DNA from: Rhizodiscina lignyota
Taxonomy: Eukaryota
DNA: 64,000 nucleotides
NCBI GenBank assembly: GCA_010015805.1
Contig: ML978131.1
Location: forward strand, 744,001-808,000
Direction: 5' to 3'
The notes beneath the pieces are model-generated. The model was not told the DNA's origin. It saw nothing but the letters and a program-made list of their open reading frames with translations, and made no database searches. Position numbers and translations under genes: made by a program. Positions 1 through 59,897 of this stretch are shown in pieces. Position 1 is the first letter of the stretch; each line of letters begins with the position of its first letter.

Positions 1-1009
1 TCGGGGACGTTCCTGCCTATTTATTGTCAGAAATGAAGGTCACTATTAGGAGAGTGAACGTGCCTTGCATGCCGGTCTGGACGTTGGCGCCAGTAGGCAA
101 TCCTGGCAGGGTTGCTGGTGACATGCGAGTGAACAACTCGAAGATGTCTATATCTATTTGTTGTTAGGATTGAGCAACACGCGATTGGGATTGCCTTCAA
201 GCTTGCCTTCGGTGTTGATGTTGAGGTTACCAGTAAGGACCGCTAGCTGTCCTTCCGTTGCGGTGTTGGCAGTCATCTCTCCGTGCATGGTGAAGTCTAC
301 ATTTACTGTCAGAAAGGAGTGACAACCTGTCGAGATTCAGAAACTTACCTTGCGTCCAGTCGAGGTTGGTATTGACGTCAGGATGCATCAGTGTCTGCTC
401 TTCCACTGGCGTTTGCAAGCTCATATCCTTGGCCATCTTGTTGTCTGTTTATGGTTAGCGATGAGAACCACGCGTCTAGAGCCATGAACTTACCTTGCAT
501 ACCAATCTCGTCCTTCTCAACATCAGGTACTGCCATCTGCTCTTCCTCTGGTGCATCGACGATCATCTCTTCGCCCATATCGTTGCCTTTTTTATTGTTA
601 GAAATGACAAACACGCGCCTAAACAACTCAAACTACCTTGCATGTCGCCCTGGAAGTCGACGCCGCCGCCAGTAGGCATTGCTGGTTGTGCTTCCGATGA
701 GGCTTCCGCGGTCATCTCCTCGTTCATGTTGGTGGGGTGGTTGTATTGGGCTATTTATCATCAGAACGAAAAACACGCGTCAAGAGTGGTGAACTTGCCT
801 GAAGCCTCATCTATAAGTGCGACAGTGGCGTCCCAGTCGAAGTCCTCAATCACATCCATGATCTCTTCATATGTCGAACCGCCTGGTTCGTTGCGATCAA
901 TGGGCCCAAAGACAGGATGATCGTACCAGTTTGGTCCTTTCCAATTGTCCATGCCCGCCGCTGCTTGAGGATTCGAGAACCACGCCGGTTTCGGTGGAGG
1001 CTCCGCCAT
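1..1009 (-). CDS. Hypothetical acidic repeat protein encoded by an array of short symmetric exons; 3' end runs off the left edge of the window
   Basis: ATG at 1009. Exons are 1009-799, 750-637, 586-494, 444-349, 296-207, 153-64 and 16-<1. Six introns of 47-53 nt each have a branch point and AG acceptor. All junctions are phase 1, and the spliced frame stays open and gives ~30-aa related repeats. Confidence 0.8.
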
Positions 1010-1627
1010 GGCTTCTGATTGTTACAGACGACGTTGAAATCAAATGTCAAAGAGTGGGCGTATTTGTTGTAAATGAGTTGGAGTGTGAGAAGAGAGGTTG
1101 TTGTTATTTTTGGGTTGTTTGTGCTGTTGAGAACGCGGGAAATGAAGTGCTTGTCAAGGTGGTGTTATGACAACAGTGGCGCGTCGTTGCTTCACCAGAG
1201 CTCGTTCACACAGTCCAGCAGGGTAACAAAGGAAGGGTTAGTCACAGGTTAACACCTCTGTGAAATGATACTAGAGGTTGTGCCGAACTTCATGTCGAAA
1301 ACACGCCCGGCCACTGGCGAAAGCATTTCACAAAGTACACTTGAAAGCGAACTGGCAATTTGCCAGCGCGCATTCATCTTCAACTTCCCCCTCTCGTGCT
1401 TTTTCTTCAAATGCTTGGGCATAATTCGAGGCCCTAATGAGTCAATTGTCTTTGAAGCCATCTCCTCATTGTTCCTTTCCAAGTGAATTTCGACCAGTCG
1501 ATGGTGTTTCGGTCTGCCCATAAGTCAACGTCCACATTCACTTCAATAAGCACCAACGCGCCAGAGAGGAAATCTCACGTATTAGGTAGGACAGAAGCAG
1601 TTCTTACACATAACACCCAACGTCCCG

Positions 1628-3410: not shown

Positions 3411-5304
3411 ATGGCAGCCATGCCACCCGCAGAGGGAGCAGCGGAGATCGCTACCCCTATAGATGGTGGCGACTTTCCAACTGAATTACGAGAGGAAGCT
3501 GAGAAGGACTACGAGAAGAACATGAACGACAGCGACGCTGATGAAGATTCAATCCAAGAACCAGAGCGCGTACATACGAAACATGATCATTCCGATCTCG
3601 AGAAACTCTCGACACATCACGATGTGGAAGCAGAAGCAGCCCACCCTGCAACGAGAGCAGTTACGGCACAAGACTGGACAGGACCAGACGATCCAGAGAA
3701 TCCTTTCAACTGGCCGATGTCGAAAAGGGTGTATTCTACAGCCATTCCTGGCCTCTTCGCATTTGTTGTGTGAGTAGTACCTCTTTTCCTACATTCCCTT
3801 CTCATCGCGATCCTCAAGCTAATCACCATCGCAGCACTTTCGGCTCCTCTGTCTACACACCAGCTATACCAGAGGTTATGCAGCAATTCCATGTTTCTCA
3901 AGAAGCTGCTGTGTTAGGTCTCTGTCTCTGGACGCTTGGTCTCGCCTGTGGACCCATGATCGCAGCCCCAATTAGCGAATCTTACGGCCGCTTGATCGTA
4001 TACAGAGTGTCTCTTCCTCTCTCGATGTTGTTCACACTGGGAGCTGGGTTCTCCAAAACGTTCGGAACACTCCTAACAATGCGACTTCTCGCTGGCATAA
4101 CTGGCAGTCCGGTCCTATCTGTCGGAGCGGGAACGAACGCAGATTTGTTTCCACCTCGGATAAGAGCGTACTCTACAACCTCTTTCCTTGTGGCGCCATT
4201 CCTTGGTCCTGCACTTGGGTAGGTCAAATATCTGTACTGCAAGCCACAAAAGCTAACGTTGGTCCATAGACCCGTCGTGGGTGGCTTTGCCGCGCAATTC
4301 AAAGGATGGCGTTGGACGCAGTGGTGCATTCTGTTCATCGGCGCAGCGGTGTATCTGATTTCCCTTCCTATGAAAGAGACATACAAGAAGGCCATCCTCG
4401 AGAAACGCGCCAAACGACTCGGCATTCAACCTCCTAAAGGCCCTGTTCCGCCTGGTCTCGCACGCATAAAGTTCATGATGACGGTAACCTTGCTGCGACC
4501 CTGCCATATGTTGGTAACGGAGCCCATAGTCACCTTTTTCAGCCTTTACAGCGCGTTCACATTCGCTCTTCTCTTCACCTTCTTCGCAGCGTTTCCGCTC
4601 GTCTTTCGCGAGGTGTACGGCTTCAACACCTATCAGAACGGCTTGGTTTTCCTCGCTATTGGCCTCGGTGTTGTTCTCGCGGCAGCGTCATGTATCTGGT
4701 TCGACGTGATATTCTACCAAGAACAACATCGTAAGGCCGTTGCCGGGGGACGGATCCACGTTGCTCCAGAACATCGACTATATGGTGCCATGGCCGGAGC
4801 TTTTGGTATCACAATTGGTATATTCTGGTTTGCGTGGACGGCACGGAAAGGTGTGCACTGGATTGTTCCGATTCTAGCGACCGTTCCCTTCGCATGGGGG
4901 AATCTGTGCATCTTCGTAAGTTGCCTCAGATGCTTGACCTGTGGGGAGTCCAACTGACGTTGTAAAACAGACATGTACAGCACTGTTCCTAGTTGATGTA
5001 TATGGACCTTTGAATGGGGCCTCCGCCCTGGCCGCGAATGGCTTGGCACGGTACGGATTGAGTGCGGTATTCCCACTCTTTACGGTTCAGAGTGAGTTTA
5101 TATACCCGTCAAGACTGCTCGCTACAGTCGTCTGCGTCGGTACGGTCGCTAACCTCGCTTCCAGTGTACAATACTCTTGGCATCGCTTGGGCAACCAGCC
5201 TTTTGGGATTCTTGTCCTTGTTGATGCTTCCCATCCCATGGTTCTTCTTCAAGTTCGGACCCAAGTATCGGGCCAAGAGCTCGTATGAAACTATCAAAGC
5301 ATAG
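3411..5304 (+). CDS. MFS drug:H+ antiporter, DHA1 family (Tpo1/Flr1-like)
   Basis: Motifs include WTGPDDPENPFNWP, APISESYGR, GP(V)VGGF, WRW, MKETY and PEHRL. Introns at about 3770-3834, 4219-4269, 4916-4970 and 5092-5164 join the ORF fragments. Confidence 0.92.
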
Positions 5305-5523: not shown

Positions 5524-6394
5524 TCATCCACGCAACTCCATCTCAATGTTTCTCACCTCGCCGGCTAATACCTGCACGTCTTCTTGCTTCATCTCGTCGG
5601 CGCTCTGCTGCAGATCCCCAATCACGTCCTCCAGAGAAGAAAGTAGATGTAGCATTTCCGCTCGCTGTCGCTCAATGTCCTGCAACAAGGTCACATTCGA
5701 CACTTGTAACTCCTGCAGCTGCGCAGAAAACGCGTCGTGCTGGGCGTTGAGGAATGGCGCCATGTGAGAGGACACCAGAGCCGACGGTGGAAGAGTGTGC
5801 GGCGCAATGGGAACTTCGACGGCCTTGCCTTGAGCCTCGGCTTTGGCTTCAGCGGCTTCTTTGCGCATTCTCGCTTCTTCGATGAGGCGATGTAGGTCGT
5901 TGAGCGACGGGATTACGGATCGGTCGGACAGAAGCTGCTCAAAGTTTTCCTGATAGAGAAGAACGTCAGTCATTCCTGTTCGAGCCTTCCGTCCCAAACT
6001 GCAGAATATGGCAGGATATGGCTATAGTTGCGATTGGCCCATCCCACAATATCTCACAGCCACATTCGCGGTAGTAGCGGACATCGTATGCGCGTCTCAT
6101 CTATAATGGAAGTTCCAAACATACTTTGCAGAATCCCTCCAATCGCCCCACAAACTCCTTATGGAACTGGTGCAGCGTCTCTCCGCGGTTCTGGGCCGGC
6201 GTGGGGAAGCACGCTGCAAAGTTGTCGTAATTGCATCTCCGCAACGTCGTGTCCAGCGCCTTCTCGAACGCGTTGATCAATGCCTGCGCGCGTGGCCCTG
6301 GAGCGTCGGGGATGGGCGGGGCAGGAAGAGAGGGGGAGGGCGAGCGCGCATGACTCTCTTGCGCGCTGTCGGGCTGCGCGGTGATAGAGGGCAT
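5524..6394 (-). CDS. NNF1: MIND/Mis12 kinetochore complex subunit Nnf1
   Basis: Exons 6394-6125 and 5949-5524 give about 231 aa. Motifs NFAACFP, ENFEQLL..RSVIPSLNDLHRLIEEAR and PHTLPP, followed by a coiled coil, match fungal Nnf1. Confidence 0.85.
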
Positions 6395-13482: not shown

Positions 13483-15240
13483 TCAGGAATCTGCTGTAGT
13501 GAGATCTAACCTCGAAACATAGTAATCAACCCACCGCTCTTCCTTCTTGACAGCGTCCTCTGATAACTGTCTCAGGGCCTTCAACTCGTCCGAGGTTCCG
13601 ATTAGATGCTGCCGACATGCGTTAACCACATCCGCTACACTCGAACCCGGCGACGGCTCGTCCATTAGGTCTAGCTCGCGAAGAAGTAGGGCGACCTTTC
13701 GCTGCACGGACGCAACCTCCACGTGCCATGCTTCTCCGAGCGGTTCAATGAGCTCGAAAGGCTTGTCTTTTACATCGAGATTGGAAGGATCTCCATCGGC
13801 TACCTTGCCCCATTCGGCTTTCCGGCCGTCCCACACTCGTTCCACCCACGCGAGCCAGCGCGCGAACTCTGAGACAATCCTGTCAACTCTTCCGACTCCA
13901 TGCTCAGATCCGGCGCTCGGCCCACCGCTCAGGGCCGCGAGCTCTCGCAGAACGCTCCCCAGGATCTGCACGTTCTCTGCCAGTCCACCGGGGCCGATTC
14001 CGGCACACCAATCATTCAGTGCAGCGACATTCGCGGCCGTCCTCGTCTGGCGCTCCTTCTGCTTAACCGCGGCGCAGCGTTTACTTAAGCACTCGAATCG
14101 CTTACGAAATTTGGCCTCGGCACTAGCTTCAAACTGTTTAAGACATGGTAAGGCCGAAGCATGCAGGAGATGTAGCTGGAGCAGCTCGATCTGTTGTCGA
14201 GAAGTCTCTGAGCCCGCAATCGATGCATCCGCCGGGCTATTCAGTGGGCTTGTCGCTACGCTAACCGTCTTGGCCGTGGGCGCCGACGGGAGGTAAGATG
14301 ATGTGGGTGGTTTGGGTGCGAATGACTTCTTCGGCGAGTAATGCTGTTGATATGTGCTGAATTGAGGTCGTAATTGGAGAGCTGGAAGGGCACTGGCGGT
14401 GCGAGAATGATTGCGGTCAGTCGTGCTGCTGTTGCGCTTGAGTCCTGACTCTTGCCTCGCTGTCTTCGCTTGGCTCGTTTGACTCGTTACGGAAGCCGAG
14501 GAGGGAGGTCGGGCTGATGATGGCGTCGCCGTATTCGATCTGCTGAGTGGGCGCGTTGAGGTGCTAACGTTAGACGCGTTCCGTAGATGACTTCGACCAA
14601 CAGCAGCACTTGCAGCAGATGGGGGTGCTATCCGGCTCGACCTGTCTTTTACGGCTGGAGCGCCAATTGCTGTTTTGCGTACTGATGATGTTCGCCCCAG
14701 GGCGGATGGTGGAGGCATCCCTGACAGGGTTTTTGTTTTTGATGGGGTTGGTATCATCCTCGACTGTCGCTTGTTAGGTGCAGCACCAAGCCTCCGGTCA
14801 TCCATGCGCGGCTCTGCACCAGAAGTACTCTGGGATGCACTGATGTCTGTACCAGACAGCGCCTCCAGAGCCCGCCGTCGTTGCTCGGCAACATCAATGT
14901 CTGCCTCGTCGCTTCCTTCTGCAGTATCTGCTCCTTCCAATCCATGTGCCTTTGTTTGCCCAGCCTCTGTTCCTAGCTCATCACCGCCTGCTGCATCTGT
15001 CCCTGCATGTTCAAGGTAGCTCGCTATGCCATCAAGCCCCATACCAGGGTTGAACATTGTCATCGGCCTCTGCCTGCCCCCCGACGCACTTCGCTGTGGA
15101 AGAAGACTTCGCCGACGCGACAGTTTACTGGCGCCAGCGCTGCCTTCGCTAAACTTTCCATCTTCGCTGGGCTGCTTGTGGGACGCGTAAGAGGCTTGAA
15201 GCTGTGGTAAGCGTGTTGGCGAGGTGACTGTTGGTGACAT
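13483..15240 (-). CDS. Hypothetical 585-aa protein with a Ser/Thr/Arg-rich N-terminal half and helical C-terminal half; possible HAUS8/AUG8-like augmin subunit
   Basis: Single 585-codon ATG ORF. A basic low-complexity region is followed by ELLQLHLLH..FEASAE..RF and coiled-coil-like helices. The functional call is inference. Confidence 0.75.
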   Translation of the reverse strand: MSPTVTSPTRLPQLQASYASHKQPSEDGKFSEGSAGASKLSRRRSLLPQRSASGGRQRPMTMFNPGMGLDGIASYLEHAGTDAAGGDELGTEAGQTKAHGLEGADTAEGSDEADIDVAEQRRRALEALSGTDISASQSTSGAEPRMDDRRLGAAPNKRQSRMIPTPSKTKTLSGMPPPSALGRTSSVRKTAIGAPAVKDRSSRIAPPSAASAAVGRSHLRNASNVSTSTRPLSRSNTATPSSARPPSSASVTSQTSQAKTARQESGLKRNSSTTDRNHSRTASALPALQLRPQFSTYQQHYSPKKSFAPKPPTSSYLPSAPTAKTVSVATSPLNSPADASIAGSETSRQQIELLQLHLLHASALPCLKQFEASAEAKFRKRFECLSKRCAAVKQKERQTRTAANVAALNDWCAGIGPGGLAENVQILGSVLRELAALSGGPSAGSEHGVGRVDRIVSEFARWLAWVERVWDGRKAEWGKVADGDPSNLDVKDKPFELIEPLGEAWHVEVASVQRKVALLLRELDLMDEPSPGSSVADVVNACRQHLIGTSDELKALRQLSEDAVKKEERWVDYYVSRLDLTTADS

Positions 15241-15749
15241 CGAGGCATTGGCGGATGCGAGAGCGGGAGCGGGTACGCGTCAGAAGGTCAATTGGGCGGC
15301 GGCGAGGTCCGTATGCGTGTGTCAAATGAGAGGAGGACGGCAGCACAAGGTTGTAGGAGGAGCGGTAATGGCGCCGAGTGGGAATTGAGTTTGTGTATTG
15401 GAAGTTCGTGGAGTAAATGTTCATGTCCATGCCGAGGAGAGATACCCCATCGAACCCTTGTCGAGTTTTTAGCGGAGTGATCGCCAACATCACACGTGTG
15501 AGAGGCTTGAACTTGCAGATGCAGTCGAGACGAAAGTGGAAAATGCTGACCTGGGCATAAAATGCCAGAACAGCTTCATTTAGAAATGGTCACATTAGGC
15601 GCAGTTTAAATTCAATTCTTGGTATCCTCGTCTATTGACAATCCAATCAGAAGCACGGCATAAACTCGAGGCAGCCGTAATCGCAGTGCGCCATTCCAAT
15701 TCAGCTCATCCAGTCATAACTATAATCGTGAAGGCCTTCCTTGGAGTGG

Positions 15750-17301: not shown

Positions 17302-20052
17302 ATGAGTACATGCACAAACTTCTGCGAGAACCTAAAGTCAATAAAGCTTGATCATGGCGTTCTACCGTCGCACGAGGAGTTGATCGAGCAGCTTCAATTC
17401 TCTGAAGACGATCGAGAACGAGGGCGCCTTCTGGGAACCTGGAATGACTTGCGAAAACGAACACATTGCGACTTTTGCCAACTCGTTGATAAGGCTGTCT
17501 CTGACAGTGCAGATTTGAGCGACAGCGCTTCTGTCCGTGGGGACCAGCTAATCAGCGTCTTGATTTTCCCTAGAGAACAGTCCTTTCGATTATCATATCC
17601 TTCGCGTCTGGGACTCCGCCTAGTCTTTATCGCAGAAGATTTTCAGCATGTGAGGGGTCCGGACACAGCCAGACTGGTCCATGAGTCAGGTATCAAAGCC
17701 TCTCAGATTAAGAGCTGGGTTAGGACATGCGAGGAGCAGCATGAATCCTGCTCGCCGGAAAGAGTCGAACAGCGGGTAGGTGGTTGAGTCTCAGCAGAGA
17801 CATATTTCGATGGAAGAACTGAAATGTCACGACAGCATCGAGACCAGTGGAATAGAATAATCGACTTCAAAGAGAGCGCCACGTCCAATTTTCGCGTCCT
17901 TGACTTGGAACTCGGCTGCATAAAGCATGTTGCTCTCGACACTAGATACGTAGCCTTGAGCTATGTCTGGGGCCACTTGCCGATGTTCAAACTTAACGTT
18001 GACAACTTCGAGCAGCTATCTTGTGAAGGCAGTCTGGAAGCTATTCGAGAGGACCTGCCGCAGACAGTCAACGATGCCATCGACCTCGTGATGGCCTTGA
18101 ATGAACGATACTTGTGGGTTGACGGCCTCTGCCTCGTGCAAGACGATGATGACGATGTTAGTTTGGGCGTCGAAATGATGAATTCAATTTATCAAGGCTC
18201 TTATTTCACAGTTGTAGCGGCATCTGGAGCCAACGCGGCTGCGGGATTGCCTGGCATAGGGCACAGTCAACGCTATGACAAGCAGAGTCGACATTTTGCA
18301 GAGATTGCTTCGGATATCAGGATGACGTTTCTCCACGGCATTGACTGGCACCTCAGCAGATCTGTCTACAATGAGCGGGGCTGGACATTGCAAGAGCTCA
18401 TACTACCCCGAAGAACAGTGATCTTTATCAATGGACAGGTCTATTTCCGTTGTCATGAAGCAAACTGGAGTCAGGAATCGTGGGCAGACAAATGGGTCCG
18501 ATGCCTGGATCCAGATGACAGCAACATCAGCCGCATTCCGGATGTATATGATACCTTTACCTCATTTATTTGGGCATACCAGAAGATATGCGAAGAATAT
18601 TCGCGGCGCAAGCTCCGAAGCGATGGCGATGCCCTCCGTGCTCTCGGTGGTATCATTCGTCCGCTCACATCCTATATGGAGACAGCGATAATCGAAGGTC
18701 TCCCTGGTTACTACCTCGACCACTTCCTTCTATTCATCTCTTCCGACGGCAACCTGCGCCGACGATCCGAATTCGGAAGCTTCTCGTGGGCTGGTTGGGA
18801 AGGCCGGATCATGTGGCCACGGGAGAACTTTGTATGGTACAACGACGACGGCGAGCACACGTGGGAAATGACAAACATCATTAAATACCTCAAGAACACT
18901 CGAATCATCGAATGGAACGCTCTGGACGCAACAGCACATCTTGAACAACTGACGTCGGAGTTTTGGAACAAGCCTTCGCGCCTGATCCAGCTCATGTGTG
19001 AGCACCCTGACGTCTTTCCTGATACCGAGAACGATCCCAACAGGCAGGTTGGGGGCAGCTGGTGGTCTTCATCCACAGGGTCCCACGGTGACATGCCTCA
19101 CTGGGAGGGAAACCGAAGTTTTGACGATCGATTACTGCACCCCAAACGAGGATTCTCCATCAAGGCCTTCGATCTGGCAAATGGACAAGCAGAGTTTGAT
19201 AGACTTGTACACCACCTCGAAGATGGCATAGAAAAGATGGTGCTTCAGAACTGGGTCGCGGGCCGCAACATCGGTAAGCCAAGTAACTCGCTCTAGATCT
19301 TTTGGAAGATCTGCTCACACGAGTTCGCAGATGTTCGTGATGCCCTTGAGAATAGATCGGCTCTTGGGCCTCGTCCACTTTCGCAGTACGTAGACAACAC
19401 TAACAAAAAAGCTTCCTATCGATTTCGACTACCACGCGATGCAGCGATGCAGACGGCGGGGCACAATTCGAAAACTGAAGATCCCCGAATACGATGCGGC
19501 AAGCATTTTGCGGAACTTCGAGCGCAAAGCGCAGATGAAACCTCCGTTGATCGCTTCATAATTCCGTTAGTTCCCTATGGCCTTGCCGCCTTTTTAACAA
19601 TTGAAAACTGACCCTGACTCCAAATTAGGAACTTCCCTCCATACACTGTTCTTGACTTCAACGCCATATCCCTTCACCTCATTATAGGAACTAGTGCAGA
19701 GCGAGAGCATCACGAACGATCACCTTTTAGCCGCATCCCAGGCATCCCGCTGCTCTCCGCCACAGACCAACTGGTCGGCTCGCTCCATCCGGACAATATC
19801 AACCTCCTTGGGCCACCAGGATCGACCGTCGAGTGCCTTATTATCTCCCGCTGTAACACGCCGACAGCGGCTTCTGCTCTTTTAACTTCAGATGGCGCAG
19901 ATACGAAGCAGCCTTGGAATCTCTTCTGGATACTCCACATTGTCTGGGAAGATGGTATCGCAGAGCGACGTGGAGTCGGGCAGATACTACGTTCTGCTCT
20001 CGAGACTGCTGTTGACCCCAAACCAGAGGTAAAGAAGGTTCTGCTTGGCTGA
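17302..20052 (+). CDS. HET-domain (heterokaryon incompatibility, TOL-like) protein
   Basis: HET blocks YVALSYVWG, YLWVDGLCLVQDD, MNSIYQGSYFTVVA and RGWTLQE, plus SFSWAGW and C-terminal AERRGVG. Introns at about 17776-17835, 19274-19330 and 19566-19628 give an open spliced frame. Confidence 0.92.
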
Positions 20053-25081: not shown

Positions 25082-28000
25082 ATGGGGCTAGCCTTCCACG
25101 ACCGTCTCCTGCGGCGAGAGTTGGGGAATACAACGAGATACTCCGGAGTCCGAGGCATCTATGGCGATAAGAGATGGGTAGATGATCTTGATATTGTCAA
25201 TGAGCTTGATGGACATACGGGTTGTGTCAATGCTTTGAGGTACGGGGAAAGGCTGCGAATGCTTCAGACGAAGAGAATAATATGCTAATTGCTTGCTCTT
25301 TAGTTGGTCCAAATCTGGGACTCTTCTCGCTTCTGGATCCGATGACACTCGCATTCATATACATTCGTATCTCCCCGATGGTAGCACGTCTCAATTCAAT
25401 CTCGCTACCTCCATCGTCACCGGCCATACACAAAACATATTCTCCGTGAAGTTCATGCCCCATTCGAACGATCGTACCATCGTCTCTGTTGCTGGAGATG
25501 CTACCGTCCGTATTTTCGATGTCGAATACTCGAGGAATAGAGCTACGGCAGGATCGTCGTCGCGCTCCCCTCGCGATGGTGCAGTGTGGGAGAATACAAA
25601 CCATTTGAGCGAAGGAGATACCAATGCAAAAGTCTTTCGGTCTCACGGCGATCGTGTGAAGCGTATCGTCACAGAGTCTTCCCCATATTTCTTCCTCACT
25701 TGCTCTGAAGATGGTGAGGTGAGGCAGTGGGACCTGCGAGAGCCGGAATCGACCTATCCTGGCATATCAAGAAATCACCATTACGGCCCACGCTCAAATA
25801 CAAATAACGATAGAGTGCCTCCTCCTCTGATAAGTTACAAGCGATACAACATCGACCTCAATACGATCAGCTGCTCGCCAAGTCGGCCTTATTACATTGC
25901 TCTTGGCGGTAATCATCTTCACTGCTTTCTTCATGATCGTCGAATGCTAGGTCGCGACCTTCTGGCTGAACGTGGAACGAAAATATCCCCATCATCTTCC
26001 AAAACTGCCTCATCAAGAGATGATGAGCTGATGGCTCAAGCAACCCAATGCGTCCGTCGTTTCGCGCCCAATGGCCAACCCCGGATGGGAAGAACAGATA
26101 CTGGACATATCACAGCCTGCAAGATTAGTGATGCAAACCCAAACGAACTCATTGCAAGCTGGAGTGGAGATCACATCTACAGCTTCGACGTTATCAGGAG
26201 TCCAGACGCAAGAGAGGGAGTTGCGCGCTTGAAGAGCCCGTCGTCAACTGCAAAGAATGTGAACGGCAAGGTAAAAGAATCAAGAGATAGAAAGCGAAAG
26301 CGAGCAAAGGAAGGTTCAACTATGAGCCTTGAGGCTGCCGAGCGCGGTGGTAGCAGAGCAAGGACGAGTAGCGAGTCAGAACTGCACACAGAAGATGTGT
26401 CACTTCGAGTCAATTACGGTAATGGTCAAAGAGAAGAAATTCCAATCGAGCCTCCACGCGCTCGCAGTCCGGCCACGGAAGCCCGTGAGGCGGAGCTGCC
26501 AGACTTCCAACGACAGAGCTTCCGCATTGCAAAAGGCTCGGTATTGCTACGGAGATGCATCTTCGATCCAGATGCAATGACATCTGAATCTACCCCTTCG
26601 AGGAGATCAACAGCCACATCGTCTAACGCACCACCTTCTCAGTCACCTACAGTACATCCTTCTTCAAACGTAACTGCCTATAGTCGTGCCCTTACGGTTG
26701 CATCTTCTCTCATGCCTGAGATTGAAGATGTTATTCGTACATGGCGCTACCCCGTCAACCCTCTTCCAGTAGATGTGACATTTCAACGCAAACTTCGCAT
26801 CGATCGAGAAAAGTCAGCACGCTTTGTCCAAGCGACAGGTACCCTCGCACGAGTACTCGGTGGCAGGATTCGGACTCTTGGTGGTGCAAATGCCGACGCT
26901 GCGAAAATGGAATTGTTCAGCCACATTAAGGCCGCACTAAATGAGAGTCACCCTGTGCCGCAGCATGAACAGTTTGGCTATGATTTCCTGAAAGCCATCT
27001 GCCTGTGGCTGGACAGCGGTCCAGGAGGTGTTGTCCGAAACTTTACCAAAGGCTCTGGGGTGCGCAATTCACCGCGCTTTCCAATTGTTCCGGAATCTGC
27101 AGATGGAGAAGCCAGCATCGATGCCCTCGACGAGCAGCTGATCCCATACCTGCTGGGCCTAGCAAGTGACAAGCCTGTCTTGAACATTGATGCTAGTCCA
27201 TTCGAGCTTGACGAACGTACCGTCGTCTTTGAGAGCGAGACTGCTGCGGTCCTTTCCTTTGCACAGGCAGTGAAGATTCCATTCGAGGATCTCACCACAG
27301 GGGCCATCATTCCAGCGTCGCCAACCGCAGCAGATAGGGTGGCAGCACAAGACCGGAAAACCGCTTTGCGATTCTGGGGGCTGAAGGTAGCAAGGGGTAT
27401 CCTAATGAATGCTTCCGAGGGAGTAGATTTCAGATTGGTGGATCATGCTTTCGGCGGTCTTGGCAGGCCGGATGCGAGTATAAAAGAAGATGAGAAGGAA
27501 CTTGCGAGACTCGGAAAACGCATCAATCCTGAGGAAGAAGAGGAAGAGGTTCAGGAAGCAAGCTTGGTTACTAGGATGGCTGCACCCACTAGCTCGAGAG
27601 AAGATGAAGAGCCAATTGGTAGCGAGGCTGCAGAAGAGCGTGCAGAAGAGCAGGCAGAACGTGAAGTCCGAGTGCCACTAAATGTATTGGCGAACTTGCT
27701 CACCGAAAATGTCGAGATTGAGGATGAGGATGACATCGACACGGGAGAAATCATCGAAATTGAGGAAGCTGAAGATGAAGAGGATGATGAAGACGTGGAC
27801 ATGGAAAATACCGCCAATGACTCATCTGGTGAAGAAGAGGAAGAAGATGAAGGCAGTAGCGATGACGATGACGGGCCACACCATGTGCTCTACCGCTCAG
27901 GGCGCATGAGAAATCTCCGAAAGTCACGTGTTAATGCCGATACGCCGGTATCCTCTCATACGCGCTCTTATGAAGGACATTGCAATGTTAAGACTGTCAA

Positions 28001-28842
28001 GGATGTCAATTTCTTCGGTCTACAGGACGAATATGTGGTGTCTGGCTCCGATTCAGGACACCTCTTCATTTGGGATCGGAAGACCGCGAAGCTTGTGAAC
28101 ATTCTCGAAGGCGATGGGGAAGTCGTCAATGTTATCCAGAGCCACCCTTATGAGCCAATGATTGCAGTGAGCGGCATTGATCATACGATCAAGATCTTCT
28201 CGCCAGATGCGAGAGCCAGACGAGATGCTCGTTTGGGCATCGGTGTTCGAAAAGTCGACGAAAGCGACTTCTCAAGCATTCAAGGACTTGGTCTGGGACG
28301 GCGTAGAAGGAGGACCAGAGCTGCTGATCCTAGTCCTCCAGCCGTAAATGAGGCCGAGGCTCAAGCGGCTGCTGAGCGCAGGACATGGGCTGAAGTCGAA
28401 GGTGACAGCGAGGAGGAAGATGGAAATGGCAGTGTGCCACCAGTTGCAGATGGCGGTTTGAGCAGCAAGAAGCGCATGTGGGACGAGTATCGCATTCGCA
28501 GTCAGAATGATTCAGATCGCAGAGGCAACAACAGAGGAGAGTATATCTCGGTGAGTATGGCTCTTGCTTGGTTTCTGAACCTCGCATAGTGCGTGAGAGC
28601 ACCACCGCGTTGATTCAACATGATTCACTAACATATAGAGTTCAGAGGAGTATGATTCAACTTCTGATGGGTCGTCTGAGGGAGGAGCTAGTGGAAACTG
28701 AAGACGGAGGTGGTGGCGAAGGTGAAATGCCACGAACGTTAGTACTAGATGAGGATCGATGCGCGGTAAGTCTGGCTCTCGCGTGGCAGTCTACCCTTGG
28801 CCAATCCTCGATCGATAGCTGACCATTCGACAGACGATGTGA
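25082..28842 (+). CDS. WD40-repeat DDB1-CUL4-associated factor, DCAF8/DCAF6-like
   Basis: Motifs include LDGHTGCVNAL, LASGSDD, GHTQNIFSVKF, SEDGEVRQWDLR, YEGHCNVKTVKDVNF, SGSDSG..FIWD and AVSGIDHTIKIF. Introns at about 25240-25303, 28551-28645 and 28766-28833. Confidence 0.9.
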
Positions 28843-36493: not shown

Positions 36494-38380
36494 TCAGTGC
36501 ACCTCAACCACAACCCGCAAACAGCCTTCCAGCCACACAGCTTCTGCTACATCCGTCTTCGCGCTTTCCCACTCGCTCTCGGACAATATGCTTACAAGCC
36601 CACTTGGCGAGAATGCTTTGACATCGACTCGCGCGTCATCAAAAGTACGGCTCGAATACTCAGCACCAAGATCTTGCACATCGCTCATCGGCAGATGCCC
36701 TGGCGAGAGACTCTCGCGGGAATTCTCTGTCCTCTGTTCCATCTGAAGCTCCAACTCACGTCGTAGTCGCTCGCCGGGATCTTCGTCGACCGTAGCATCG
36801 AATACAGGCTCTGTAGTCGAGTCTTCATCCACGTTCTCTGCATCTGCTGAAGGGATTGAGATGGCCTGCTCTATACTCTGTTGCACACCAGACGCGGTGG
36901 ACTCAGCAGCTCGAAGCGCAGCTCTCGCCTCTTGCCTCGCAAGCTCGACTGACGGAAGCGCCTTCTTGCTGTACTCTGCAGGTCCAGAGAAGTCGCCGGT
37001 GGATCGAATATGGTCTACGTGCTCCAGGACAGTTTGAGCAAGTTTCTGAAACGTCATGTGTGAGTGGAGTGGAGAGTGAGAAGGGTTGGGCCAGTCGAAG
37101 CGTAGCAGCGGTGTCTGGCCGCGGATGAAGATGAACTGGAGGACGTTACTTTTAACATTGGGTAGCGGTGGAGGGGTGAGCATCTGTGATATGTCCGTCG
37201 CGGCGGTACCGGCACCAGTCGCCTTTGAAGCTTGTATTTGCGGCTGTGGCCTTAATGGTTGTTGCTGCGATGGAGCTGTATCCAATGACGGATCAAGAGT
37301 CTGTTGATGGTCCGACCACATCTCAGGCTCATCCACATCATTGCTGTTGCCTCCATCTGCCCTTTCGCTCTGCGCTCTCCCTCCCTTATGCACGCCGCTC
37401 TTGCGCACCTCAACCGCATACAGTCTCTGCCGTTCGTTCGCAACCATCCGCCGCATCAACGGCGTCATAAGGCTGACGATCTGGTTCGCATCTCGCGGCC
37501 AGACCCACCTCTCCTCATTCACTTCACCATTCGTGACACCCCCTGATTCCTCCACAATCGGCCCGGGAAAGTACACCTCCCCCGCTCCGACCTCCAAAAA
37601 CCCCTTGACACAATCAAACAGCTTCAGCTTCACCATGTCCGGCTCATCCTTCTCCCCCTTGCCCCGTAGCTCCCGTCTCCCAACACACTCCTGCCGCTCC
37701 GGGTGCGTGGGATCGAGCATGTAGCTCTTCGCCGCAGCTTGTAGGTGCACGAAGTTCTCGGGTGTGAGGCGTAAGGAGGAGTAGAGCTTCGCGGTTGAGG
37801 GCCGCTTGGACTTCTTGTGGGTGTCGTGGTTGCGGAAGAGCGCGGTGGTGCCGAAGACGCCGGCGGCGCGGGCGGTGGTGATGAGAGTTGGGGACTGGGG
37901 GATGGGGTTGTCTTGAGGGTTGTTCGAGTCGTTGTTTGGAGAGGGCTGAGGGGGTGGGGGTGTACGCTTCCGCTTGCCTAGTTGTGCTGTGGGCGGTGTC
38001 TGTGGATGAGGTTGTAATTGGATATCCTGGTGCTGGTCGTCGTCGTCGTCGTCGTGTGAGGTCGCATCCTGTACTCCGGTTGCGGTATTCACGGCTTCTA
38101 AAAGGCCTGCTAGATGCGTATTGCTGTCCGGCTGCTCGACAGCAACGCTCCGTAGGTTCGAATCCACTACATCATGCCCAGCACCGCCATTATTACTCGA
38201 CGGATCCGCAAAGAAGCCCGTATCATGGTCATGAACCGCCTCCGTATGGGCTATGTGGAAGTCTGCGTCGCCGTTCGTCACGAACGGCTGATGCAGCGCA
38301 GGATCGAGGAACTCAGCTCCCCGAATGGGCTGGTAATAAGGCGCTGAAGGGTCCAAAGGGTCGGCGGCTTGGCCGTCCAT
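36494..38380 (-). CDS. Hypothetical 628-aa fungal protein, probably nuclear
   Basis: Long ATG ORF with a basic KRKR segment and an ordered core (LYSSLRLTPENFVHLQAAAKSYMLD...TPLMRRMVANERQRLYA). Confidence 0.8.
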   Translation of the reverse strand: MDGQAADPLDPSAPYYQPIRGAEFLDPALHQPFVTNGDADFHIAHTEAVHDHDTGFFADPSSNNGGAGHDVVDSNLRSVAVEQPDSNTHLAGLLEAVNTATGVQDATSHDDDDDDQHQDIQLQPHPQTPPTAQLGKRKRTPPPPQPSPNNDSNNPQDNPIPQSPTLITTARAAGVFGTTALFRNHDTHKKSKRPSTAKLYSSLRLTPENFVHLQAAAKSYMLDPTHPERQECVGRRELRGKGEKDEPDMVKLKLFDCVKGFLEVGAGEVYFPGPIVEESGGVTNGEVNEERWVWPRDANQIVSLMTPLMRRMVANERQRLYAVEVRKSGVHKGGRAQSERADGGNSNDVDEPEMWSDHQQTLDPSLDTAPSQQQPLRPQPQIQASKATGAGTAATDISQMLTPPPLPNVKSNVLQFIFIRGQTPLLRFDWPNPSHSPLHSHMTFQKLAQTVLEHVDHIRSTGDFSGPAEYSKKALPSVELARQEARAALRAAESTASGVQQSIEQAISIPSADAENVDEDSTTEPVFDATVDEDPGERLRRELELQMEQRTENSRESLSPGHLPMSDVQDLGAEYSSRTFDDARVDVKAFSPSGLVSILSESEWESAKTDVAEAVWLEGCLRVVVEVH

Positions 38381-39576
38381 GTCCGCATGGCTGATGCTGT
38401 CGTCGAGCCTGCGTTAGCGATGCCATTTCGTTAGCACGTAGTCCACGAAGACGGGTGATATGCATGCGCCATGCGCGCTTCCAGACAGTGGTTGCTGCCA
38501 TTGCCATCACCCTAGCATGTCAAATGGCGCTTATTATCCGTGCAGTCTCAGAAAGGAGATTGTTTGCACTTACGAAAACGAAGGAACGTTGTTGGCCCAG
38601 GCTTGTGTTTGTTTGTCGTTCTGTCAAACATTCTCCCGCAAAGGCTAGTAAAGCCACGATGTTTGCCTCAGGTCAGGGCATCGGTATTGGCAAGGATCAC
38701 TACTTCACTCACACTATGAAGTTAAGCTCAAGTAGCCATCTCACTGTAAGAGCGTAGATAATCTCGCGTCAAAAGTGCATCTCATTGGCTTTCTTCAACT
38801 CCTCATGTCGCTATTCCTACGGAAACCAGCCACCCACACCCTTTCCTTTCCTTATGTATGCAAAACGTTCTTGGTTGTATTGTTTAAACCTCGAATGCAC
38901 GGCGAAATGAGGCAATCAGAGGGCCGGGAAGCACTTAGGAATAATTCTTATAGAAAGCATTCGACGAATCGAAAGAACCCTGATTGAAGGCTATACTCGC
39001 TCTATCGTGGGTGATTAATCGCCATTGAAAACCGCGAGCATCAATAAACAAACAACCTCAGTGATCAATAGTTAAGACTAGAATCCTAACCCTGAGGGGG
39101 TGCTAAACCTGACAATGGCGATAAAACCTGAGCATGTCCAGATTTGCACTGCGTGCTTTGGCACTCCGCCACAATATACAACGAGCTCTAGCAAATAAAC
39201 CGATTCGCAGCGCTCATATATCCCTATGAGTATGTCTACGCAAGACATAACTTTTCCCAGGGCCCATGATGCTGCAATGAAGACACCCGCGTCCTCCATC
39301 CCATGCTTTCCCATTCCTCATCGATCCAGTCCGTCAAAGATCCATCCGCTAGATATGCTCCATGCATTCCTCGCAACGAAAGACTGACTTGCGTAAAAGC
39401 TGCAAGCCATGATAACAAGTACGACCGATGTGCTGCGTCTCCCATCAAATGGCGGCAGTCTGCTACCGCGTGGTATTGCTGAATGCAGCAAGCCCACTTT
39501 CTTGACGTATGGGATATCAACGCAAATCGGCCGTTCAGAATTCGTTCAGCTCCTCAAAACCCATCAAAACCGCTCT

Positions 39577-55943: not shown

Positions 55944-56135
55944 TATGCTTCGCTGTCTCATAATTCCTTGATTGAGAAACGGTCCACGCTCAGGCTTCAC
56001 CTCTCCGCCCATTATGGAGCGCTGTCTCATAATCACTTGATAAAGAAAGCAGTCCACGTTCAGACTTCATCTCTGCCCCATTATGAAGCGCCGTCTCATA
56101 ATTCGTTGCTGGGAAAGACGTTCACACTCTGAGAC
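55944..56135. repeat. 69-bp tandem repeat, about 2.7 copies
   Basis: cgc(t/c)gtctcataat recurs at 55951, 56020 and 56089, with similar sequence between the copies. Confidence 0.88.
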
Positions 56136-56160: not shown

Positions 56161-57906
56161 TCATGCCTTCTTCCTGCGCTCCCGCTTTTCGACCTCCTTC
56201 TGCATGTTGGTCTCTTCCTCCAGCTTCTTGGCTGTGGGCTTCCTCACGCGCCTGAGCCGAGAAGCGGGTCCTCCCTCCTCATCACCAGACGGCTGCTCTT
56301 CTCGAAACTTGATCGTCAGTCTCGTCTCGCGCTCCGATTTTGCAGCAGGTGGTCCGTTCGCAGCAGGTGGTCCCTTCGCAGCAGTAGGTCCCTTCGCAGC
56401 AGTAGGTCCCTTCGCAGCAGATGGTCCCTTCGTAGTAGGTGGTCCCTTCGTAGTAGTAGGTAGCTGTTCCTCGTGAACCTTAATCTTTAGCTTCGTCACG
56501 CCCTTCGGTTCTCCAGCAGGTTCTTCCTTCTCGGCAGCGACGTGCTCATTCTGAGGCTTCTTGGCGGTGGATCGCGTCTTTTGCTTGGGCTTCTCCATCT
56601 CTTGCACACTGTCGCTGGAGAGCATTCGCTCAGTCGCCAGGTTCTTCGACATCGACCTCGTCTCGCGCCTGGAACTCTCTGGATGTGCCGTGTCTTCACG
56701 AACAGCCAAGCCCTCATCCTCACGCCCCTTTCCCTTGCCTCTCTTCTGCTGCTTCGAGATCGCACCAAGTTGGCCCTTCTCTCTAGGAGCAGCAGACGTC
56801 CTCTCATCCTGAAAAGTATGCTCATACTCGTGGTCCAGATCATTGTACCAGTTCAGTAGCCTCGTGACGAACCTCTCCAGGAACTCACGGAAGCCTGCTG
56901 CCACTGCGACGTGCTGACTCTCCTGCAAGTCGACCTGCGGCACTGCCGACTCGTCCAGCGCTCCCATGACCTCCTCAACAAGCCGCGTGTGAAACTCCAG
57001 CGGCTCGCCCTTCCACCCGTGGCTGTGGTAGACTGCCTTCTCCAGAACGTCCTCCATGACCTTTGCCTCATTGGTATTTGCAGGATTGAGACGACGCGGT
57101 TCGACAGTGTTTCTGCGCGCTGGACGAAGGAGGTAGTGAATGCCGGGGATCATGTCGTCGCGGTTGATTGTGATGATGCTGCGCTTGGACTTGTAGCGGA
57201 TGTGGGACTGGTCTGGGATAGGCGTGTCGTAGCGGGAGAGGCCTTCCTCGATCTTGTCCCAGAGCTGCTTTAGCCGCGGGTTCGGGTTCCACGCAACATC
57301 AGGAATGGTGAGGCCTTGTGCCTCAGCATAAGCTTGAACTTCTAGGCACGCGCGGTCGTTGCTGCGGCCCCAGAGCTCGGCGAGGTCGTGCCACCAGTGG
57401 CGGCAGTTGCTGGCTCCGCAGTCGCGATGCAGGTCGTTGAACTGGGTTTGAGTATAGTCGTAGACGACTCCAACATTGTCAACCTTCTCTCTCCTCTCGT
57501 TAAACGTCTCACGTGTGATGCGGAACATGATGCGCTCGGGATGTCTGGAATTTTGAAACGTCACCATCTTCAGCATCGTGCTGCCACTTTTCTGCGCCAC
57601 CGCCTCCAGAGCCTCCTCTAGATCCTTCCAATTCACTCCTCCTCCGCGACGACGCACGGTAATGTTCTCGTCATCGACGAGGCTGAGGCACGAGAAGCTC
57701 CAGCTCACGCCGGGCGGAGCAGTAGTCACAGGCGCATTACGTGTCGCGAGGTTCTCGGGATCTTGGAGGAAGAGTTCTCTGCCCTTTGGGAGAATCGACT
57801 GGTCGGGGTAGAGGAACACGAATTCGTGGTGCGGCCAGCGCGCGACACCATCGCCGTTGAAGCGGCCGGCAGGAGACTTTGTAGCGACGTGTCGTTCGTA
57901 GGGCAT
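56161..57906 (-). CDS. Hypothetical 581-aa protein with a Lys-rich tail and PxAAKG repeats
   Basis: Uninterrupted ATG ORF. It contains an H..C....C.H cluster (LHRDCGASNCRHWWH) and a charged C-terminus. Confidence 0.75.
   Translation of the reverse strand: MPYERHVATKSPAGRFNGDGVARWPHHEFVFLYPDQSILPKGRELFLQDPENLATRNAPVTTAPPGVSWSFSCLSLVDDENITVRRRGGGVNWKDLEEALEAVAQKSGSTMLKMVTFQNSRHPERIMFRITRETFNERREKVDNVGVVYDYTQTQFNDLHRDCGASNCRHWWHDLAELWGRSNDRACLEVQAYAEAQGLTIPDVAWNPNPRLKQLWDKIEEGLSRYDTPIPDQSHIRYKSKRSIITINRDDMIPGIHYLLRPARRNTVEPRRLNPANTNEAKVMEDVLEKAVYHSHGWKGEPLEFHTRLVEEVMGALDESAVPQVDLQESQHVAVAAGFREFLERFVTRLLNWYNDLDHEYEHTFQDERTSAAPREKGQLGAISKQQKRGKGKGREDEGLAVREDTAHPESSRRETRSMSKNLATERMLSSDSVQEMEKPKQKTRSTAKKPQNEHVAAEKEEPAGEPKGVTKLKIKVHEEQLPTTTKGPPTTKGPSAAKGPTAAKGPTAAKGPPAANGPPAAKSERETRLTIKFREEQPSGDEEGGPASRLRRVRKPTAKKLEEETNMQKEVEKRERRKKA
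56340..56462 (-). repeat. Coding 18-bp minisatellite (PTAAKG-like, about 6-7 units)
   Basis: ggtcccttcgcagcagta-like units in tandem on the + strand. Confidence 0.9.
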
Positions 57907-59897
57907 CCTGTAATTTTCGGGGGTGGATGGCGAGCCGGACGGCGGAGATGACTGCGATGCGCGTGAGAGTATACTTGCCTCGGTGGTATAGTCTATGTTT
58001 AGTTACAACATTTTGCCCTCTGCTTTCTATTGCAGGATCCATGATGAAGTGGAAAGATCTGCTGTAGGTAGTGTAGTGTGTTGATTTTGGTGTCGGGAGT
58101 GTGTAGAGTTGAGCTGGTTGAGGTTTTGTAGAAGTGTGGGTGTAAACGTAGACTGTAGCTTTTTGAAGAGCTGCGCCTGCGTTTGATGCGAGAGCCTCGC
58201 GCTCGGAAGTGCGCAGCGTTGGATTCGGTTGGTGGGGATGATGGGAACAATTAAAGTGGCAGCCTTGTCAAGCGAATTCTGCAGGTGGGAGAAGGAAGTG
58301 ATGTCAGTTCGCTATCTTCACGCCTCTGTGAGAGTGAATCGTTGGCAGGGTCGACCAGCTCGAGCAAGACCAAAAAGAAAGGACTGCACTTGAAATGCAC
58401 CATGTTAAAGGATTCTATAAGTTATAATAAGTCGGACTTAGAATTTTTCAACCCAAAAAAATTTGGCAGAAAAAAGGCAAAAAATTCAGGCACCCACTCC
58501 TACTCCTCGATGTTGAATTGGAGTAGAAGGCTGTACCTTATCAAACTTTCCAACGTGTCCGATGCGGTTTACCCCTCACAGCTGCTCGTACAGCTAAGGT
58601 ACGCCAAGGACTTCTTTGGCAGTTTTGTCGGTCGTCAACCTATGGTGGTCACCCTTCAGGAGTGTGGCCACCAATTGTTGGCTGAAGTAGAGAGCAACGT
58701 CGACTTGAGCTAATGCTCGTTCTCTGAATTGGAGTACTAAGGAAAGTTACGAAATATATGAATGACCATAGAATAAAATAAATCAGGGGTCATACTCAAT
58801 GACGGAAGAGCTTCCAGCCTCCCAATACCGCACCCTCTACTTTTCCTTTCTGAGTTTCTTCAACGCACACCACTTTGCACTAAAACACTGTCGATGGCGA
58901 TGGTGAATAGTGAGCAGCCTTTTCATTTCAACTTCGAGCTTTTCTTTTCCTCTTTCCTCTTTGAGCGAGACAATTTTCAACGCATCGTGTGAAAAGATTG
59001 ACGGACGGACTGGTCGACGAGACAACCGGCAAAGATGCTGCTTGTGGTCATGGAAAGAAAGAGGCAGACCAGCAATCTATTGATGACGAACCCTACCAGT
59101 AGCCAGCGGTCTTTAAGGCAAATTAAATCCATGAGTTCATGAAGCTTACCGACTGACCGAAACTCAAAAGCGATCGCGGAGGCTCGCCACTGTACTGTAG
59201 CACGTTCGATATCAATGGCCGACCTTCGAGACTCTTACACCTGGGGCTTTCGCATGAACAATTAGGGGAGCGTCCGCTAGGGCGGCGAGAGTTTCGCAGC
59301 TGGAGGGCCAGCTGGCATGACTGCCACTGATCGCACCATCGAAAGCTTCATCATTCTCGCAGCCAGCCCATCTTGACAGTGGGATAGGACATTCCTGGTT
59401 CTCCCTCAGGACAAGGGTGTCGGGACAAAGGTACGGGGGAAGGTTCGTGGTGAAGGGGTATCGTGGGTATCGGGACAAGGATTTCGGTACGCCGACTTCA
59501 GACGCAGGTACTAGAACTCTGCTTCGTAATAGACGCCACAGATTGCTTTCTGCTAACCACACTGCTGTCTTAGGGCAGATTACTCCATCTGTTGGCCATG
59601 ACGGTTGCTTCAGCGGGTCGGGTTGAGGGCGTGCTGGAGAGCATTGCCGGCTCCAATCACCACCACAACCACACAGGTTTTGCGCCTATTGTCTAGTACG
59701 AGCCTCTATTCCTTCGAGTCGATCAACGGTCCTGTTCCACTCGCGTGGTCGTGGCTGACAGCGCATCGGCCAGCCGTGATCGAATATGGGGGAAACTGGA
59801 GAATTAGCACTACTACTGCATCAGTGCCACTACTATTTGAACAGAAAGAGAGCACAATTACTGTAACAGTCAATTGAACATCAATGAAGAGATTAGC

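Follow-up and report, generated by a model that had tools for sequence, protein, structure and literature searches.

In this study, we analysed a window of 64,000 nt from the genome of the wood-dwelling fungus Rhizodiscina lignyota (GenBank assembly GCA_010015805.1, contig ML978131.1, positions 744,001 to 808,000 of the forward strand), at the left edge of which an original prediction, made from the letters of the DNA alone, had placed a gene built from a tandem array of small symmetric exons. The gene is read from the minus strand. It begins with an ATG at position 1009 and leaves the window at its left edge. Its visible part consists of a first exon, five internal exons that encode related peptides, the beginning of a seventh exon and six short introns, three of which carry GC donors (Table 1). 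The best explanation for the whole of this arrangement, and one that we consider probable from the sequence analyses described here, is that the locus is a real protein-coding gene, so far found in one lineage only, and that its array goes back to the copying of a small cassette of one exon and one intron.

The predicted gene and its repeated units

Table 1. Parts of the predicted gene in their order on the minus strand; positions refer to the window and repeats are numbered from the 5' end of the gene
Feature	Positions	Strand	Length (nt)	Details
Upstream region, probably 5' untranslated region or core promoter	1010..1110	-		CT-rich tract, some 60-90 nt upstream of the ATG
Exon 1	1009-799	-	211	ATG at 1009-1007; 70 codons and 1 nt
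Intron 1	798-751	-	48	GC-AG, CAG/GCAAGT; branch site CTGAT, its A 10 nt from the 3' end
Exon 2, repeat 1	750-637	-	114	Phase 1-1; codon score +11.2 bits
Intron 2	636-587	-	50	GT-AG, GTAGTT; branch site CTAAC; shared with the public annotation
Exon 3, repeat 2	586-494	-	93	Phase 1-1; codon score +11.3 bits
Intron 3	493-445	-	49	GT-AG, GTAAGT; branch site CTAAC; shared with the public annotation
Exon 4, repeat 3	444-349	-	96	Phase 1-1; codon score +7.6 bits
Intron 4	348-297	-	52	GT-AG, GTAAGT; branch site CTGAC; shared with the public annotation
Exon 5, repeat 4	296-207	-	90	Phase 1-1; codon score +7.5 bits
Intron 5	206-154	-	53	GC-AG, AAG/GCAAGC; branch site CTAAC; second in-frame acceptor at 148
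Exon 6, repeat 5	153-64	-	90 (84 with the second acceptor)	Phase 1-1; codon score +4.4 bits
Intron 6	63-17	-	47	GC-AG, AAG/GCACGT; branch site CTGAC; AATAAA at 25-20
Exon 7, first part	16-1	-	16	Cut by the window edge

The start codon of exon 1 stands in the context GCCATGG, with an in-frame TAA five codons upstream, and CT-rich blocks such as the one that precedes it are marks of fungal transcription starts. The five internal exons have the lengths and the phase that were originally reported for them; all five are symmetric and all have a length divisible by three. The reported intron lengths and donors were likewise correct. Divided by three, the intron lengths leave remainders of 0, 2, 1, 1, 2 and 2, only one of the six being a multiple of three, and exons that are all multiples of three next to introns that are not is what frame-preserving selection on the exons predicts. 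At intron 5, two in-frame AG acceptors are found 6 nt apart (AAATAG/ATATAG, 148-156, minus strand), of which the first is the homologous one. The public annotation holds a shorter model at the same place, 'hypothetical protein NA57DRAFT_59616 [Rhizodiscina lignyota]' (P0004), a protein of 124 aa that is identical to the window (154..679, minus strand) and agrees with the predicted gene in introns 2-4.

Leave-one-out searches with nhmmer profiles covered all 64 kb. A profile built from the other four exon-intron units recovered each left-out unit at E values of 1.2e-22 to 5.5e-10, and a profile of the other five introns recovered each left-out intron at E values of 6.1e-9 to 7.9e-3; the three GC introns were found at 2.6e-6 (intron 1), 7.9e-3 (intron 5) and 1.1e-5 (intron 6). 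When the exons were taken alone, exons 2-5 were recovered at E <= 1.6e-4 and exon 6 at E 0.1. Exon 6 is the most diverged of the repeats and has lost the M..EM motif from its 5' half, although the whole unit to which it belongs is still found at E 2.8e-10. By these comparisons the exon-intron unit is a true tandem repeat, with introns that are related beyond the generic splice signals, and the proposed tandem amplification of a unit of about 140 bp is borne out by the homology of both its exon and its intron part. The units are 51-62% identical to each other and the intron pairs 54-72%. It is because of this low identity between units that Tandem Repeats Finder did not report the array. In the other 63 kb of the window no further copy of the units or introns was detected, the few profile matches being at chance level, and tblastn found no paralogue. 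A central CGCGTG, which had been noticed in four of the six introns, was located in introns 1, 2, 3 and 5 of the alignment, and we judged it, without a formal test, to be an inherited hexamer and unremarkable.

Repeat-induced point mutation (RIP) was considered as the cause of the divergence between the units and rejected, as the RIP indices of the array are the same as those of the whole window. Together with a transition/transversion ratio of 0.98 between units, these indices point to an old duplication rather than to RIP. Judged by the alignments, at least four head-to-tail copies were made of a cassette in which one symmetric exon is joined to one intron; this happened long ago, and no homogenisation followed.

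Coding potential was measured with a codon-usage score trained on 13 long open reading frames (ORFs) of the window, the score of exon 6 being computed on 64-147. The predicted frame is the best of the six in every exon, with +14.1 bits for exon 1 and the values listed in Table 1 for the repeats, and the originally proposed gene model is upheld by this result as well as by the introns that it has in common with the public annotation. For exon 1, the five other frames have negative scores and contain stops, and the predicted frame ranks in the top 1.4% of random window frames. The introns, by comparison, score negatively in 17 of 18 frames. A gene on the plus strand was rejected, since every plus-strand frame scores below the predicted minus-strand frame in all exons. 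When 20-30% random change was simulated, all five repeat exons were free of stops in only 1.6-6% of the runs.

The visible part of the predicted protein has 234 residues, a pI of 4.05 and no cysteine. After an aromatic-rich N-terminal region of 70 residues come five or more repeats that are acidic, rich in methionine and characterised by an MxxxM motif, and the repeat consensus has MxxxM at its start, E.Q in its centre and MQG at its close; the related peptides had been quoted correctly, including the M-Q ending of three of the five repeat exons. Methionine makes up 7.7% of the protein and 9.1% of the repeats, compared with 1.6% in the long ORFs of the window. The maximum hydropathy is 0.57 for the whole protein and -0.39 over the first 30 residues, and because there is no hydrophobic segment, no signal peptide or membrane span was seen by hydropathy, the only predictor of these that was applied. 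Structure models are of low confidence (mean pLDDT 59.3 for exon 1 and 55.3 for P0004; 0.24 for the ESM Atlas model of P0004), which would fit a disordered acidic repeat region. The protein is probably disordered and intracellular, and that its methionine motifs might serve in metal binding or oxidant buffering is a guess.

Searches for homologues were made separately with exon 1 and with the repeats. For exon 1, a word-index search among longer proteins gave no homologue among 33 candidates, a metagenome scan gave 594 pattern matches and no confirmed one, the ESM Atlas held none, and the best match in the PDB had an E value of 0.67. HMMER against 1.84 billion representatives returned three matches at E <= 0.001, which were short, multi-stretch alignments to long repeat proteins and were judged spurious, and the only Pfam match, to TFR_dimer, lay below threshold (20.2 bits, cut-off 27.1). 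A profile search with the repeat, as proposed along with the gene model, found only P0004, that is, the locus itself, among 299 candidates; the metagenome scan with the repeats gave 80 pattern matches, none of them confirmed, and nothing was found in Pfam, the PDB or the ESM Atlas. The statement that this is not a described fungal family accordingly holds for the protein, metagenome, Pfam, PDB and ESM Atlas searches. Rfam had no match in the window.

Splice signals and the GC donors

GC donors are present in three of the six introns, namely 1, 5 and 6, and the excess that had been claimed is confirmed when set against the GC-AG share of fungal splice-site pairs, which is given as 1.009% (PMC7072748, Table 1). 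For independent introns such a proportion would be extraordinary. However, because the introns are paralogues, it takes no more than one to three changes between T and C at position +2 to account for it, and a special system is not needed. In plants, according to the same source, homologous intron positions are often GC in one and GT in another (PMC7072748). The identity of the introns is 0.64 for GC-GC, 0.60 for GT-GT and 0.61 for GC-GT pairs, and neither the identity matrix nor a tree resolves the number and direction of the +2 changes.

Every one of the six introns has a single CTRAY branch site, the A of which lies 10-12 nt from the 3' end and is followed by an A-rich tail; the branch point and A-rich run that had been described for most of the introns are thus a feature of all of them. 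In the GC introns 1, 5 and 6 the branch-site A lies 10 nt from the 3' end and the acceptor is the first AG after it. Conservation across all introns is 0.69 at the donor and 0.81 at the branch site as against 0.53 in the intron middles, and within the three GC-type introns the corresponding values are 0.78, 0.73 and 0.53. A composite pattern of donor, branch site and acceptor matches five of the six proposed introns in this 1 kb, whereas first-order Markov simulations give 0.145 matches per kb per strand, a comparison in which the intron copies share ancestry and do not count as independent. Over the whole window, a strict short-intron pattern (donor GYANGY, branch site CTRAY and acceptor) occurs 23 times, compared with 18.5 +/- 4.0 in simulations, and seven of the 23 matches are inside this gene. 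Introns are far denser at this locus than in the surrounding genes, many of them long ORFs with no interruption. In two of the six introns, intron 2 (about 590-600) and intron 6 (20-25), an AATAAA hexamer is situated between the branch site and the acceptor.

The donor consensus is MAG/GTAAGT. Intron 1 agrees with it at eight of nine positions, and introns 5 and 6 at seven of nine each, which is also the score of the annotated GT intron 2 (AAG/GTAGTT). For intron 1, there are two further arguments. It is homologous to introns 2-6 and will therefore have been an intron when the array formed, which means that an exon upstream of it must exist. Exon 1 is open from its ATG to the CAG/GCAAGT donor and ends in phase 1, fitting the frame of exon 2, and as coding character is apparent in exon 1 as well as in the repeats, and a single mRNA would yield a single protein, intron 1 must, by this reasoning, be spliced. 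We regard it as very likely that intron 1 is a working GC-AG intron, while for introns 5 and 6 the signals tilt the balance towards a working state with less assurance. All three are probably ordinary GC-AG introns of the U2 type.

Extent of the gene and variation of its product

The public model splices introns 2, 3 and 4 at the same junctions as the predicted gene and contains GT-AG introns only. Its start codon (679-677) lies inside exon 2, two in-frame ATGs at 727 and 715 being passed over, and exon 1 is in no annotated protein found. The JGI pipeline is reported to have been used in annotating the Rhizodiscina lignyota genome (PMC7082219), and Augustus, one fungal gene predictor, is reported not to recognise GC-AG introns (PMC5677156). 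Such a blindness to GC-AG would fit a truncated public model. P0004 looks like an ab initio call rather than one based on transcripts, and if this is so, its agreement with us on introns 2-4 is no experimental proof of them. The GT-only model seems to have cut the gene at both ends owing to the GC donors.

Several observations speak against the gene as we propose it. P0004 reads through intron 5 and ends at a TAG (156-154) that is the acceptor of this very intron; some 130 nt past the annotated stop, intron 6 has its AATAAA, which as a poly(A) signal would suit a short transcript; and in a single-sequence structure model a hairpin with a pLDDT of 71-83 falls partly on the read-through tail. 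The donors GCAAGC and GCACGT each have a second mismatch to the consensus in addition to the GC, and exon 6, between them, is the weakest repeat by codon score as well as in the exon-only profile search. Differences between the repeats show no excess at the third codon position (0.48/0.41/0.39), and the identity of the exons (0.557) is no higher than that of the introns (0.595), so that no selection on the peptide sequence is visible. Finally, no homologue that would offer a comparative test turned up in any collection searched.

Several of these observations would be accounted for if the short public model were right, which we think unlikely. The product would then be the annotated protein of 124 aa, or one that begins at the ATG at 727 and is slightly longer, the GC 'donors' would be dead splice sites, exon 6 and intron 6 would be decaying relics in the 3' untranslated region, and exon 1 would be an upstream ORF or the relic of an older, longer gene. 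This is exactly how the locus has been annotated, and the rarity of GC donors in fungi (1.009%; PMC7072748), the degenerate state of exon 6, the AATAAA about 130 nt beyond the TAG and the predicted hairpin, which covers residues 95-119 and includes the read-through tail, all agree with it. On the other hand, the frame that gives exon 1 its +14.1 bits is the very one in phase with exon 2, and the start context of exon 1 is strong, whereas the read-through tail of P0004 scores -5.0 bits. Although the intron middles are only 53% identical, GC and GT introns do not differ in how well their branch sites and acceptors have been kept. In addition, an annotated start that skips the ATGs at 727 and 715 has the look of an ab initio choice, and at least one fungal predictor, Augustus, is described as not recognising GC-AG introns (PMC5677156). 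These grounds, together with exon lengths that are multiples of three, favour the longer model; the case is firm for exon 1 and intron 1, and less so for introns 5 and 6.

If the longer gene is accepted, it can be asked whether its product varies. Retention of any of the GC introns would lead to a stop within 13-39 codons; for intron 1 the stop was also placed 12 codons on. It has been described that short introns of ascomycetes are paired by intron definition (PMC6616335), and intron retention is on this account a likelier form of variation than exon skipping. Should the product vary, retention of the weak GC introns with their early stops would therefore be more plausible than the omission of exons. 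A bolder proposal is that the three weak GC donors, which flank a GT core, act as regulated switches, with different protein ends and repeat numbers arising by controlled retention, or with differences in copy number between strains. With intron 5 retained, a short form would end at the TAG of this intron, and with intron 5 spliced, the array would continue, possibly with many repeats beyond the window; retention of intron 1 would uncouple the N-terminal region from the repeats. We consider it very unlikely that the donors are used in this way.

The original prediction had also likened the gene to micro-exon genes, with symmetric exons that would be skipped in combinations or vary in number between strains. 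As in micro-exon genes, the internal exons are symmetric (all are in phase 1-1) and any of them could be dropped in frame; intron 5 with its two in-frame acceptors 6 nt apart and exons that are no better conserved than the introns could be cited in support. However, in-frame duplication produces such symmetry automatically, as a by-product, and the fact that exons could be skipped without a frameshift is not evidence that they are. The likeness fails in three of four defining features: the micro-exon genes of schistosomes have exons of 3-81 bp and introns of up to 5 kb, and their products are secreted (10.1101/2023.06.21.545858), whereas the exons here measure 90-114 nt, the introns, at 47-53 nt, are about 100 times shorter, and by hydropathy there is no signal peptide. 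Introns of this size in an ascomycete would moreover be paired by intron definition (PMC6616335), and repeats that are old and unhomogenised argue against an ongoing change in copy number. We therefore give a system of this kind hardly any credence.

That the locus is a non-functional one, a degenerate non-coding minisatellite or a dead gene with chance frames and splice-like signals, would agree with the missing homologues, the lack of a third-position excess and the low-confidence structures, but is highly improbable in view of frame-specific codon usage in six of six exons, exon lengths that are all multiples of three next to freely varying introns, stop-free exons that arise in just 1.6-6% of neutral simulations, selectively kept splice signals and plus-strand frames that all lie below the predicted one.

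Neighbourhood, origin of the array and known systems

The nearest recognisable neighbours of the gene are an MFS transporter, split over at least two ORFs (3587-4957, plus strand), and the Nnf1 kinetochore protein (5524-6021, minus strand), and both would be useful as synteny anchors for finding the locus in relatives. Further into the window lie an ORF with a HET domain (17788-19296, plus strand; E 8.4e-29) and an ORF of 1102 aa with WD40 repeats at both ends (25281-28589, plus strand); HET and WD40-repeat genes presumably recall fungal loci of non-self recognition. The neighbouring genes, this HET gene among them, are in keeping with a filamentous ascomycete. Three ORFs of about 600 aa (13483-15279, 36494-38413 and 56161-58002, all on the minus strand) have no Pfam match at E <= 0.001, and the last of them, which is without a Pfam family, contains an 18-nt tandem repeat (56342-56450; 6.1 copies, 91% matches) and has a 69-nt repeat (55951-56102; 2.2 copies) just beside it.

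The history that we suggest for the array is that its coding region grew, long ago, through tandem duplication of the cassette of about 140 bp, that is, of a phase-1-1 exon and a short intron. The likely route would be unequal exchange or replication slippage between homologous introns. With breakpoints in introns and an exon length that is a multiple of three, each copy would add about 30 residues in frame and one further intron. The copies would then have diverged to their present 51-62% identity, the frame, the branch sites and the acceptors being kept by selection while the peptide drifted. In three of the paralogous introns the second donor position is now C, and as a result both ends of the gene would have been lost from a GT-only gene model.

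The mechanism, an old tandem duplication of a cassette of exon and intron, is known but has seldom been reported in fungi. The literature searched, supplements aside, contained neither an account of this gene nor a comparable fungal case of tandem exon duplication. We see in the locus a tidy and probably mis-annotated fungal example rather than a new mechanism, and it overturns no current understanding. For annotation, it is an apparent case of a GT-only model that cuts a fungal gene at both ends, and one that is easily corrected. For the study of splice sites, six paralogous introns, three with GT and three with GC donors, would amount to a small natural experiment on donor change under intron definition. 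For the study of intron gain, a single small gene would owe most of its at least six introns to intragenic duplication, a process reported to be rare in the related Zymoseptoria tritici (PMC4457414).

Among known systems, the gene may be compared first with the tandem exon duplications of animals, which 7-17% of metazoan genes are reported to carry (PMC3342872). As in these, an internal exon has been copied head to tail within one gene and its symmetric phase keeps the frame; the differences are that there are at least five copies here, that the organism is a fungus and that the introns are only about 50 nt long. Duplicated exons in animals are typically spliced in a mutually exclusive manner, whereas nothing suggests this for the present gene, and intron definition, as described for ascomycetes (PMC6616335), makes it unlikely. 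A second comparison is with spider silk genes, in which introns likewise delimit each protein repeat and are homologous to one another inside a given gene, and for the flagelliform and MaSp2 silks it has been proposed that the introns ease the duplication of repeats (PMC9779670). However, the MaSp2 introns are given as 94.3-99.7% identical within a gene (PMC9779670), and because the intron pairs here are only 54-72% identical, there is no concerted evolution at this locus. The units are also far smaller than those of silk genes, and the protein is not a structural silk.

A further comparison is with the Dothideomycetes, the same fungal class, in which intragenic tandem duplication has been recognised as a rare source of new introns (PMC4457414), and the gene described here resembles those cases in that the number of introns within one gene rises. 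It differs from them in its extent: in Zymoseptoria tritici intragenic duplication is stated to account for <1% of single intron gains (PMC4457414), while here it would have supplied most of the introns of one small gene. Most recent intron gains in Dothideomycetes have instead been attributed to introner-like elements (PMC4457414), with which the present introns share that they are related in sequence and occur in a Dothideomycete. Within the window, however, these six introns do not behave like such elements or like a dispersed element at all: they are all in one gene, travel together with their exons, are only 54-72% identical and have no copy elsewhere in the 64 kb.

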